This document shows, in pieces, positions 951 to 45,038 of a DNA stretch of 64,000 nucleotides (the stretch's first letter is position 1; each line of letters opens with the position of its first letter). The stretch is from NCBI RefSeq assembly GCF_003334315.1, contig NZ_QOWR01000012.1, one strand, 5' to 3'. The notes beneath the pieces were generated by a model that saw only the letters and a program-made list of their open reading frames with translations, had not been told where the DNA came from and did no database searches. This DNA comes from Escherichia coli. GTDB lineage: Bacteria > Pseudomonadota > Gammaproteobacteria > Enterobacterales > Enterobacteriaceae. The translations under genes and the position numbers were made by a program.

Positions 951-2972
<2,022 letters not shown>

Positions 2973-3010
2973 CAGGATAGCGAAGAAGACTGATGACAAA
3001 CGGAAAACAG

Positions 3011-3108
3011 CCTGATGCGCTACGCTTATCAGGCCTACATTTTCTCCGCAATATATTGAATTTGCGCGGTTTGTAGGCCGGATAAGGCGTTCACGCCGCA
3101 TCCGGCAT
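3011..3108. repeat. REP/BIME cluster downstream of uvrB
   Basis: gcctgatgcgctacgcttatcaggcctac ... gtaggccggataaggcgttcacgccgcatccggca; canonical REP palindromes in inverted orientation. Confidence 0.85.
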
Positions 3109-34680: not shown

Positions 34681-35442
<762 letters not shown>

Positions 35443-35480
35443 CTATCCACGGGACGATCCCCTGCGTGACATTCACATAT

Positions 35481-35497
35481 ATGAAAAAATCGTGCCA
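35481..35497 (-). promoter_or_regulatory. glnHp2 sigma-54 promoter (-24/-12)
   Basis: Minus strand reads TGGCACgatttTTTCA (GG-N10-TC spacing). Confidence 0.75.
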
Positions 35498-35570
35498 GTT
35501 TTGCAACTCCTTGATTTTTCGAGATGCGGCAAAAACGTGATGCACGATTTATAGGGCAATACCCTGAAGA

Positions 35571-35600
35571 TGCACCATTCTGGGGCACCAATCTGGTGCG
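35571..35600. promoter_or_regulatory. Overlapping NtrC enhancer sites upstream of glnHp2
   Basis: TGCACCAttcTGGGGCA and GCACCAatcTGGTGC, about 100-130 nt upstream of the sigma-54 promoter. Confidence 0.75.
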
Positions 35601-35830
35601 CTAAAATTGTGCACTCAACACAGTGATTATTTAGCGTAAAACCTGATGAAAAAACAATCTTTATGTAACGATTGTGTGATGATGTGGATACAAAAAATTT
35701 ACTTAATCAGCTGGAGATAGCAGATGGATGCACTAAATAAGTGCGTTGAGGTGGGCTGCAAAACAAAACGGCCTCCTGTCAGGAAGCCGCTTTTATCGGG
35801 TACTAAAGTTCTGCACCATCAGCGATGGAT

Positions 35831-36478
<648 letters not shown>

Positions 36479-36594
36479 TTAGATATATTGATAAGAACAA
36501 TTCTTATTTATCTGCTCGCCAGGAATTTTCGGAATAAATATGCTTTTGCATAATTCGATATATAAAGACGGTGTAGAGGAAAAGTAGCGAGAAA

Positions 36595-36624
36595 TTCTGC
36601 ATGGTTATGCATAACCATGCAGAA
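36595..36624. terminator. Perfect 30-bp palindrome downstream of rhtA (putative terminator or binding site)
   Basis: ttctgcatggttatgcataaccatgcagaa, 13-bp arms, 9 nt past the rhtA stop. Confidence 0.5.
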
Positions 36625-36632
36625 ATGTAAAT

Positions 36633-37520
36633 TTAATTAATGTCTAATTCTTTTATTTTGCTCTCTTTGCGTACTGTCAGCGTAGACCCCATTGAAGCGG
36701 CGATAATCGCGCCGAGCGCCAGTAGCTGTATGGGTGTCAGTGTTTCTCCGAGGAAAATCATCCCGGAAACGGCAGCCAGCGCCGGTTCCATGCTCATCAG
36801 CGTACCAAATGTCCGTGTTGGCAAACGGGTGAGGGCAATCATTTCCAGCGAATAAGGCAGAGCGGTCGAGAGAATAGCGACAGCCAGACCCAATGGAATA
36901 ACCGACCAGTGCCAGAGTGCTTCACCAGCCTGAAGCGCTCCAATTGGCACGAAAATTAACGCTGCAATCAACGAACCAATTGCCACCGTCGCAGGGCCAT
37001 GTTCCGCTCCTGCGCGTTGCCCACTTAAAATGTAAATAGCCCAACAAGCCCCGGCCCCCAGTGCCAGCGCACAGCCGGTTAAATCGACATGGGAAACGTC
37101 TTGCCCCAGCGGTAGCAGGAACCACAGACCAAGAACCGCCAGCACAACCCAGACGAAATCTACCGGGCGACGAGAAGAGAACAGCGCCACCGCCAGTGGT
37201 CCGGTGAACTCCAGCGCCACCGCAATACCCAGCGGTACTGTCTGAATAGAAAGATAAAAAAGATAATTCATCCCACCCAGCGAAACGCCGTAAAACAACA
37301 GCGGTAACCGTTGCTCTTTGGCAAAGCGCAGTCGCCATGGCTTAAAGAACGCGATGAGGATCAGCGTTCCTAATGCCAGACGCAGCGCAGTGACACCCGG
37401 TGCGCCCACCAGAGGAAAAAGTGACTTAGCTAACGAGGCTCCACCCTGAATAGACGCCATGGCAACGAGCAATATGACTATTGGTAACCAGACCGGCATT
37501 TTACGTAATGAACCAGGCAT
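36633..37520 (-). CDS. rhtA: Threonine/homoserine exporter RhtA (DMT family)
   Basis: Start MPGSLRKMPVWLPIV (295 aa); 10 TM segments. Confidence 0.9.
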   Translation of the reverse strand: MPGSLRKMPVWLPIVILLVAMASIQGGASLAKSLFPLVGAPGVTALRLALGTLILIAFFKPWRLRFAKEQRLPLLFYGVSLGGMNYLFYLSIQTVPLGIAVALEFTGPLAVALFSSRRPVDFVWVVLAVLGLWFLLPLGQDVSHVDLTGCALALGAGACWAIYILSGQRAGAEHGPATVAIGSLIAALIFVPIGALQAGEALWHWSVIPLGLAVAILSTALPYSLEMIALTRLPTRTFGTLMSMEPALAAVSGMIFLGETLTPIQLLALGAIIAASMGSTLTVRKESKIKELDIN

Positions 37521-37872
37521 CCTTTCTCCCACAAATATCTAGACTTAAGTAAAGCGTGGAGTGTACTGGATATACCCAATGCTGGTTGAGCATTTGTTGA
37601 AAAAATTTTCCCCCGTTTTGACTAAAATGCGCCAGGATTGATGGAATCATTAGTCTGGTGATTAGGAATAATCTGGATGAATGACAGGGAAAACATGCGT
37701 AATACTTACGCAGTTCTCTGAAAAAGTGATTTAAATTTAGATGGATAGCGGTGTATGGAAACGTTCTGTTACATGAAATGGCCCGTTAGACATCACAAAT
37801 CGCGAAGAGTTTCCCATTAATTTTTGATATATTTAAAACTTAGGACTTATTTGAATCACATTTGAGGTGGTT

Positions 37873-38388
37873 ATGAAAAAAATTGCATGTCTTTCAGCAC
37901 TGGCCGCAGTTCTGGCTTTCACCGCAGGTACTTCCGTAGCTGCGACTTCTACTGTAACTGGCGGTTACGCACAGAGCGACGCTCAGGGCCAAATGAACAA
38001 AATGGGCGGTTTCAACCTGAAATACCGCTATGAAGAAGACAACAGCCCGCTGGGTGTGATCGGTTCTTTCACTTACACCGAGAAAAGCCGTACTGCAAGC
38101 TCTGGTGACTACAACAAAAACCAGTACTACGGCATCACTGCTGGTCCGGCTTACCGCATTAACGACTGGGCAAGCATCTACGGTGTAGTGGGTGTGGGTT
38201 ATGGTAAATTCCAGACCACTGAATACCCGACCTACAAACACGACACCAGCGACTACGGTTTCTCCTACGGTGCGGGTCTGCAGTTCAACCCGATGGAAAA
38301 CGTTGCTCTGGACTTCTCTTACGAGCAGAGCCGTATTCGTAGCGTTGACGTAGGCACCTGGATTGCCGGTGTTGGTTACCGCTTCTAA
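37873..38388 (+). CDS. ompX: Outer-membrane protein OmpX
   Basis: MKKIACLSALAAVLAFTAGTSVA signal peptide; C-terminal GYRF; 171 aa. Confidence 0.95.
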   Translation: MKKIACLSALAAVLAFTAGTSVAATSTVTGGYAQSDAQGQMNKMGGFNLKYRYEEDNSPLGVIGSFTYTEKSRTASSGDYNKNQYYGITAGPAYRINDWASIYGVVGVGYGKFQTTEYPTYKHDTSDYGFSYGAGLQFNPMENVALDFSYEQSRIRSVDVGTWIAGVGYRF

Positions 38389-38403
38389 TCACTTTGGTGA
38401 TAT

Positions 38404-38436
38404 AAAAAATCCGCCTCTCGGGGCGGATTTTTGTTT
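38404..38436. terminator. Bidirectional intrinsic terminator between ompX and opgE
   Basis: aaaaaATCCGCCtctcgGGGCGGATttttgttttt; GC stem flanked by A and T runs. Confidence 0.8.
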
Positions 38437-40020
38437 TTAAGGTTTCGGGTCGAAAATATCGGTTCCGAGATGGTTGTAATCCACCTTCTGTAACTGGAAG
38501 TTGGTGATGTATATCGGCCCGGCTTTCTTCTCAGATATAAACGGGTATTTGATGTTAATTTCCTTCGCTTTAATCCCCGTCCACTGGGAGAAAAAGCCTA
38601 AGAAGTCATTGGCTGAGCGGCGGGCTTTAATCACACGATGCGCTTTATCGTCGCTGGAAATGACCATAAAAGGCACCTGGAAATTTTGCTGATATTTATC
38701 ATCATGGGCAAGGTATTGCACGTCTTTACCGCGCTCTTTAAAGGCCAGACCGTGGTCAGAAAAGTAAACCAGCGAGAAGCTGCTGCCGCTGTTGCGTAAC
38801 TGATCGTACAGCTTGCGCAGTAAATCGTCCGTTTGCGTCATGGTATAGAGATAGCACGACGTTTCTTTCGATTGCACAAAGGTTTCGTATTTTCCTTGTG
38901 TCCTGTCGCAGGCCTGCGGATGTGAGCCCATCAGATGTAGAACAATCAGCTGCGGTTGCGAGTGCTCTTGCGCCAGCACTTGAGCGGTCATATCCAGTAA
39001 CGCTTCGTCTTTGGTGTTTTTATCTGCTTCAAAATTACCTTCTTTCAGGAAGTACACTTCATCTGCTCGTTTGGCGATGCTGGCGATAGCGGTATCGTAT
39101 TCGCCGATTTGACCCTGGTTGGAAAACCACCAGGTCTGGAAGCCCGCGCGATTTGCCAGGGTGACAAAGTTATCCTGAAACTGTGGTTTGCCATCGACAA
39201 CGCGATTGAGCGTTAAGCCAAGCGATTTCTGCGTGGAGCCACTGGCGGCAATGTAGTCAGCAAATATCAAACCGTTAACGCTGCTGGCAAACGGGGTATT
39301 GTCCCAGTGACCGCCAAAGGCACCGAGGGCATCGCGACGCGCGCTTTCACCGATCACCACCACATAGGTCTGATACTTCGGCTTAACGGCAGTGACCGTC
39401 CAGGTATCTTTCATTCCGGAAAGTTTTGCCATCCGTTCTTGCTCTTCAATCACCTCGTTATTATTGACGATGACATCCTTAGCAAAACGAAATACCGGAT
39501 AGCCAGTATCTTTCAGTTTAAATACGCCACCCCAGGCCAGGTTTTGCACGGGAGCAACAAAAAATGTCGCCACACTGAATACCAGACACAGGCTGTCGAA
39601 GGTATTCCAGCGCGCTTTTTCATTCTCTTTTTTTCGCCTGATTGCTATTACGCCGAGCGCAAAAATAAATAAGCCGACCAGGTAGCTGTACCACGGAAAA
39701 ATCGTCAGGATTTCGGTCGACTCTTCCATATTGGTGGAGTGCAATGCCAGCAATGTATTGAAATTAGGCGCGCCGTAGGCCTGAGCAAAAGGGAAATAAC
39801 AAGCCGCCACCAGCGAACTGACACCGACCAGAACTTTTTGTACGCGAGGCAATGTTCGCCATAGCAAAAGCAAAATAGCCGTAAACGCAGCGGTGTAGAG
39901 CAAACTGAAGGGGTAACCTAAGCCGAGGTTAATTAATAGCGACTGTAAAAAGTAGAACGCAGTCCACGGGCTAAATACCCGGCTACGGGTAACAAGCGAT
40001 TCTTTGAGGGTTAAATTCAT
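38437..40020 (-). CDS. opgE: Phosphoethanolamine transferase OpgE (YbiP)
   Basis: 527 aa; N-terminal TM region and sulfatase-like domain. Confidence 0.9.
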   Translation of the reverse strand: MNLTLKESLVTRSRVFSPWTAFYFLQSLLINLGLGYPFSLLYTAAFTAILLLLWRTLPRVQKVLVGVSSLVAACYFPFAQAYGAPNFNTLLALHSTNMEESTEILTIFPWYSYLVGLFIFALGVIAIRRKKENEKARWNTFDSLCLVFSVATFFVAPVQNLAWGGVFKLKDTGYPVFRFAKDVIVNNNEVIEEQERMAKLSGMKDTWTVTAVKPKYQTYVVVIGESARRDALGAFGGHWDNTPFASSVNGLIFADYIAASGSTQKSLGLTLNRVVDGKPQFQDNFVTLANRAGFQTWWFSNQGQIGEYDTAIASIAKRADEVYFLKEGNFEADKNTKDEALLDMTAQVLAQEHSQPQLIVLHLMGSHPQACDRTQGKYETFVQSKETSCYLYTMTQTDDLLRKLYDQLRNSGSSFSLVYFSDHGLAFKERGKDVQYLAHDDKYQQNFQVPFMVISSDDKAHRVIKARRSANDFLGFFSQWTGIKAKEINIKYPFISEKKAGPIYITNFQLQKVDYNHLGTDIFDPKP

Positions 40021-44978: not shown

Positions 44979-45038
44979 GTGATTATCCGTCACCCCGATA
45001 CTGTCGGGGTGACGGCGGCTGATGACAAATGCAAAATA

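Follow-up and report, generated by a model that had tools for sequence, protein, structure and literature searches.

The perfect 30-bp palindrome between rhtA and dps of Escherichia coli, found at positions 36595-36624 of the 64-kb stretch of DNA that was analyzed (referred to here as the window), is quite probably the DNA image of a stem-loop in the 3'-untranslated region of the rhtA mRNA, where it would form a protective 3' end, with Rho-dependent release of the transcript downstream of the hairpin and possibly some intrinsic termination in E. coli. The hairpin is real, and its position is tied to the stop codon of rhtA; it is an ordinary RNA stem-loop of a known class. Nearly all of the Enterobacteriaceae that were examined carry a hairpin just past the end of rhtA, and the palindrome is the Escherichia version of this element. 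Comparisons among the related loci show that the pairing of the hairpin is under selection on the rhtA-sense RNA strand. The anchoring of the hairpin, the covariation of its stem, the restriction of the wobble pairs largely to one strand, and the variable spacing of the arms indicate a structure formed by the rhtA mRNA and not an operator for a dimeric protein. The result supplies rhtA with a defined 3'-boundary element and has little significance beyond annotation.

The gene order in the window is glnH-dps-rhtA-ompX, and rhtA and dps are found in tandem on the minus strand. The open reading frame of rhtA was listed as 36633-37532 with a GTG start; the ATG at 37520 was adopted here, and the resulting coding sequence of this threonine/homoserine exporter (36633-37520, minus strand) matches the 295-aa RhtA of RefSeq. 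The stop codon, TAA, is located at 36635-36633 on the minus strand, and the palindrome begins 8 nt later, after the spacer AUUUACAU (36625-36632, minus strand). The coding sequence of dps is at 35831-36334 on the same strand. Window positions were converted to those of NC_000913.3 with an offset of +812587, which was derived from the 3' end of the dps terminator at 848340 in the tables of Adams et al. 2021, and the palindrome is thereby placed at 849182-849211. The published transcription start sites for dps (848950) and rhtA (850130), determined by SMRT-Cappable-seq (PMC6131387), correspond to window positions 36363 and 37543, respectively, and the dps unit from its transcription start to the end of the coding sequence spans 35831-36363. 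Approximately 246 bp separate the center of the palindrome from the dps transcription start downstream of it. The rhtA-dps spacer region is 99.8% identical to that of K-12, with no differences over the 101 nt around the palindrome. A scan for consensus promoters and terminators returned no promoter-like site in the region of the palindrome. On the other side of rhtA, the RefSeq annotation of K-12 places a small protein of 21 codons, YliM, in the rhtA-ompX spacer at approximately 37700-37765 of the window on the plus strand (2956-3021 of locus L001).

The palindrome consists of TTCTGCATGGTTATG followed directly by CATAACCATGCAGAA, two arms of 15 nt that are 100% complementary with a spacer of 0 nt. 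When drawn as an RNA hairpin on the minus strand, it forms a 13-bp stem and a 4-nt loop, with the 5' arm at 36624-36612, the loop UGCA at 36611-36608, and the 3' arm at 36607-36595. Five of the 13 pairs are G-C, and A-U pairs are found at the base of the stem. The palindrome is the sole one in the window with a spacer of zero and arms of at least 7 nt. The longest such arm ranged from 7 to 11 nt when the window was simulated 100 times with a first-order Markov model, versus the 15 nt observed. The energy of the hairpin fold is -18 to -18.7 kcal/mol. When folded within a context of 81 nt of the minus strand, a value of -18.7 kcal/mol was obtained with z = -5.7, and 0 of 200 shuffled sequences were equally stable. 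The length of the arms relative to the simulations, together with the z value of the fold, establishes that the palindrome is real and rules out chance. A preliminary description of this DNA had reported a perfect 30-bp palindrome with 13-bp arms, just past the rhtA stop and upstream of the dps promoter, and had proposed a calculation of the fold energy; the palindrome and its position are both confirmed, and the calculation is the one given above. An Rfam scan of 35000-38500, with E-values of up to 1, returned no covariance-model match at the palindrome.

Among 5426 complete genomes of E. coli, the rhtA-dps spacer was found in 5422 and the palindrome in 5366, where 29-30 of the 30 nt were matched at a single site in each genome. 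Two places per genome were returned because the palindrome matches both strands of that one site. No annotated feature underlies the match in the E. coli genomes. A scan for relatives using Dps identified 80 loci, and rhtA was found upstream of dps on the same strand in every locus with enough flanking sequence. In 68 distinct sequences, the stop codon of rhtA is followed by a hairpin with 9 or more pairs. Measured from the stop codon in these 68 loci, the hairpin is centered at 25.2 ± 2.3 nt and its stem begins after a gap of 8.5 ± 2.6 nt, whereas the distance from the hairpin to the ATG of dps is 269 ± 26 nt with a range of 195-375 nt. The nearly constant offset from the rhtA stop, set against the variable distance to dps, indicates that the element is tied to the end of rhtA and not to the dps promoter.

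The sequence of the stem differs among the genera. It is TTCTGCATGG in Escherichia, TATTTACCGTGG in Buttiauxella, CATTTAATGCGG in the Cedecea group, TTATTCAGCATGAG in Kosakonia, GTTCTGCACGAGGC in Raoultella, and CGGCCCG in Klebsiella pneumoniae. The outer arms TTCTGCATG / CATGCAGAA (36595-36603 and 36616-36624; alignment columns 14-46) are invariant across ten genera, among them Escherichia, Salmonella, Citrobacter, Enterobacter, Lelliottia, and Silvania, with flanking sequences that have diverged past recognition. These outer arms are as conserved as the core promoter block of dps, and the approximately 170 nt between the two blocks cannot be aligned. Pairing by itself would not strictly require so strong a constraint on the outer arms; the constraint is nonetheless compatible with a slow compensatory evolution of the stem. 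The spacing of the outer arms ranges from 10 to 14 nt among the genera, and the sequence of the inner stem and the loop is variable. Perfection with a spacer of zero is limited to Escherichia, and the palindrome is exact there because the loop of the hairpin happens to be self-complementary. The characterization of the arms in the preliminary description as unusually long and error-free thus holds for Escherichia and not beyond it; Citrobacter sedlakii differs at one base of the loop. Within Escherichia, a perfect palindrome of 34 bp is found in E. coli SCPM-O-B-8794 (L003, 2209-2242), and one of 32 bp, with a compensated change of a C-G pair to U-A, is found in E. albertii (L002, 1811-1842).

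The covariation of the stem was measured in a plain MAFFT alignment of 58 distinct sequences, and the controls were alignments in which the pairing partners were slid and 500 shuffles. The cells of the helix are paired in 90.9% of the cases, versus 30-47% when the partners were slid. Changes on both sides were found for 13 of the 14 pairs, and the observed values were reached by 0 of the 500 shuffles. The same helix was predicted independently by RNAalifold. One of the pairs is found as a series from C-G to U-G to U-A (E. albertii, Salmonella), which is the expected path for the slow compensatory evolution of a stem.

The exceptions to Watson-Crick pairing identify the strand on which selection acts. 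When read on the rhtA-sense strand, there are 34 G·U or U·G cells and 3 A·C or C·A cells among those of the helix that are not Watson-Crick; the sequences include related ones, so these counts and those for covariation overstate the number of independent events, and several genera contribute different wobbles. Selection on duplex or cruciform DNA would not favor G·T over A·C, and the bias argues for selection on the rhtA-sense RNA. When the two strands of each hairpin were folded separately, the sense strand gave the more stable hairpin in 46 loci and the antisense strand in 11, with ties in another 11; the folds of the hairpins contain 55 G·U pairs on the sense strand versus 13 on the antisense strand. 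When the whole 66-nt region was folded instead, neither strand was clearly preferred: the sense strand came out ahead in 37 loci and the antisense strand in 28.

The element is missing from a few lineages. No hairpin follows the rhtA stop codon in Pseudocitrobacter (L014 and L016) or Trabulsiella (L046 and L069), where the spacer is only 118-133 nt in length. The distal spacer is missing entirely from these two genera, and dps and its core promoter are kept. The hairpin is thus dispensable in some lineages. The scan with Dps also returned two short contigs from assemblies of other bacteria, one of 703 bp from Marinobacter sp. BW6 (L006) and one of 573 bp from Streptomyces polyasparticus (L076), in which Dps is 92-97% identical to that of E. 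coli; these contigs are almost certainly enterobacterial contamination of those assemblies.

The tail that follows the hairpin on the rhtA-sense strand, UUUCUCGCUACUUUUCC (36578-36594, minus strand), is an imperfect U-tract. It begins with UUU and contains 9 U in the first 15 nt, and a TransTermHP-like scoring gives -3.97 for this tail, versus -3.42 for the canonical terminator of ompX (38405-38432) by the same scoring. The tail (UUUCUCGC) has 4 U in its first 8 nt and fails the rule of 5 in 8 that is applied in the consensus terminator scan, which did not list the hairpin at 36595-36624. We take the default cutoff of TransTermHP to be -2.5, which a score of -3.97 would pass. The statement in the preliminary description that the palindrome lacks a clear U-tract is roughly right. 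The U-tract is not conserved; most of the other genera score from -1.5 to -3, and the tails of Enterobacter score about -1.5. At the ompX terminator itself, the Rfam scan gave subthreshold matches to rnk_pseudo, STnc370, and RNAI (38346-38440, plus strand), all on the hairpin at 38405-38432, and these look like generic matches to a terminator.

Downstream of the hairpin, the RNA is rich in C and poor in G. The 80 nt at 36514-36593 (minus strand) contain 20 C and 10 G, and the 40 nt nearest the stem account for 12 of the C and 3 of the G; by these base counts, the stretch is a candidate loading (rut) region for Rho. C also outnumbered G in 69 of the 72 related loci, where the mean counts over 80 nt were 19.5 for C and 9.4 for G across the set. 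In the SMRT-Cappable-seq study (PMC6131387), the transcription unit from the rhtA promoter contains b0813 alone, and dps is a separate unit. These units support a transcript boundary somewhere in the rhtA-dps spacer and do not give its position. Neither a 3' end nor a Rho region is entered at 8490xx-8492xx of NC_000913.3 in the full tables of Term-seq ends and Rho regions from Adams et al. 2021, which cover three growth conditions, and no 3' end of rhtA is listed near the hairpin in the TERMITe supplements. Low expression of rhtA may well account for these missing entries. Since a mapped 3' end of rhtA was found in neither set of tables, we infer the mechanism from the comparative evidence.

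The closest known counterparts are the Rho-dependent transcript ends of E. coli described by Dar and Sorek in 2018 (PMC6061677), which are stable stem-loops of the size of a terminator that lack a U-rich tail or an upstream A-tract, are followed immediately by an excess of C over G, and block PNPase and RNase II. The rhtA hairpin resembles this class in its position just past the gene, in the size of its stem and loop, in having neither a conserved U-rich tail nor an upstream A-tract, and in the excess of C over G immediately downstream. It differs from the typical member in that the tail in E. coli is more U-rich, and the U-poor character of the class is thus found across the family and only in part in E. 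coli. For rhtA, the Rho dependence and a precise 3' end at the base of the hairpin are predictions, and no Rho region is entered for this site by Adams et al. 2021.

In the mechanism that we propose, RNA polymerase would leave rhtA and the 13-bp hairpin would form in the transcript 8 nt past the stop codon. The hairpin would then set the stable 3' end of the rhtA transcript, and its role across the family would most likely be that of a barrier to 3'-to-5' exonucleases. Rho would load on the C-rich, G-poor stretch and release the transcript a short way beyond the hairpin. For E. coli itself, the partial U-tract (UUUCU...) may add direct termination driven by the hairpin. With or without this intrinsic component, the predicted outcome is the same: the rhtA message would be stabilized, and transcription from rhtA would be kept out of the dps promoter. 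The hairpin would then account for the behavior of rhtA and dps, which are arranged in tandem on the same strand, as separate units. It would also offer a clean and well-conserved example with which to ask whether hairpins that lack a U-tract terminate transcription or merely protect 3' ends.

The preliminary description had left it open whether the palindrome is the rhtA terminator, a binding site, or both. Of these, a function of the terminator type is supported by the anchoring to the rhtA stop, the compensatory changes, and the wobble pairs of the sense strand. It is possible, if rather doubtful, that the element is a plain Rho-independent terminator of rhtA, in which the hairpin and the tail release RNA polymerase without Rho. 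Such a terminator would fit the sense-strand hairpin of -18.7 kcal/mol at 8 nt past the stop codon, the tail that begins with UUU and scores no worse than that of ompX, and the recovery of rhtA as a unit of one gene in full-length reads (PMC6131387). With the canonical ompX terminator the rhtA hairpin shares its placement on the sense strand soon after a stop codon, a similar fold energy, and a tail that begins with UUU. The hairpin departs from the canonical intrinsic terminator in having only 5 G-C pairs of 13 and an AT-rich base, an interrupted U-tract that is absent from most of the genera that keep the hairpin, and no upstream A-tract; it fails the consensus scan with 4 U of 8, and the tables of Adams et al. 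2021 and TERMITe give no mapped 3' end. The AT-rich base of the stem, together with the imperfect U-tract, indicates that this is not a canonical intrinsic terminator. A binding site for a sequence-specific protein, the other option that had been raised, is not supported in view of the spacing of the arms (10-14 nt), the unconserved inner half, and the different stem sequences of the distant genera. As an operator through which a dimeric transcription factor would control dps or rhtA, the palindrome would offer perfect dyad symmetry and outer arms that are invariant in ten genera amid unrecognizable flanks. We nevertheless consider an operator to be extremely improbable. The variable spacing and the unrelated inner part do not fit a rigid dimeric operator and are what would be seen in a stem that evolves slowly by compensatory changes; Buttiauxella, Cedecea, Kosakonia, and Klebsiella have stems of unrelated sequence that nevertheless pair. 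There is also only one copy per E. coli genome, and the position, downstream of rhtA and approximately 246 bp from the dps start, is a poor one for an operator. When up to 3 mismatches were allowed in a half-site, the 64-kb window yielded 5 other matches; each of these had 3 mismatches and stood unpaired, and they were not regarded as sites. Our literature search for dps, rhtA, the palindrome, and binding sites in the intergenic region found only two papers on Dps binding, neither of which names the palindrome as an operator.

The 30-bp inverted repeat itself is already known in the Dps-binding literature. Melekhov et al. 2015 (PMC4433220) reported a Dps footprint upstream of dps, and Antipov et al. 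2017 (PMC5553809) located the same 30-bp repeat at the center of the DNase I footprint of Dps and speculated that the loss of the Dps contact at the repeat may alter the topology of the promoter. The palindrome could accordingly be read as a preferred contact or cruciform site for Dps or another nucleoid protein, approximately 246 bp upstream of the dps start, that tunes the topology of the promoter. This reading draws on the naming of the repeat in the footprint (PMC5553809 and PMC4433220), on the near invariance of the palindrome in E. coli (5366 of 5426 genomes), and on the AT-rich center without a spacer, which would be expected to favor extrusion. We judge it to be unlikely, and the comparative data lend it no support. 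The wobble pairs lie almost entirely on the rhtA-sense strand, as would be the case for selection on RNA and not on duplex or cruciform DNA; the element follows the rhtA stop and not the dps promoter; perfection with a spacer of zero occurs only in Escherichia; and dps with its core promoter persists in Pseudocitrobacter and Trabulsiella, which lack the element. The Dps binding in both papers was observed in vitro and is broadly nonspecific. Relative to the reading as a Dps contact site, the evolutionary signal is at the level of the RNA and is tied to rhtA. The "30 bp inverted repeat" of the Dps literature carries the evolutionary signal of an RNA function linked to rhtA and not to dps. It is very unlikely that the element has two jobs in Escherichia, in which the RNA hairpin at the 3' end of rhtA would double as a perfect DNA palindrome of 30-34 bp that is extruded as a cruciform or gripped by Dps and couples supercoiling, including that driven by rhtA transcription, to the dps promoter.

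Two other families of elements were considered for the palindrome and rejected. REP elements are extragenic palindromes at the 3' ends of genes that are able to stabilize the upstream mRNA. The rhtA palindrome is likewise extragenic and located at the 3' end of a gene, but it is present as a single copy per E. coli genome with no REP consensus and no close copy in the window, and it occupies an orthologous position across genera. The inner sequence, GGTTAT-GC-ATAACC, recalls what we take to be boxes of the Fur/Zur type; the spacing is wrong for such a box, and this inner part is not conserved outside of Escherichia, Citrobacter, and Salmonella.

Two additional repeats were observed in the window. 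An imperfect inverted repeat pairs 36540-36553 with 36605-36618 over 14 nt with 86% complementarity. On the rhtA-sense RNA, the segment at 36540-36553 is approximately 55-70 nt downstream, where it could compete for pairing with the hairpin, and it is probably due to chance. At 44987-45015, a strong hairpin with the sequence CCGTCACCCCGA-TACTG-TCGGGGTGACGG has a perfect, G+C-rich stem of 12 bp; only one perfect stem in the window is longer.
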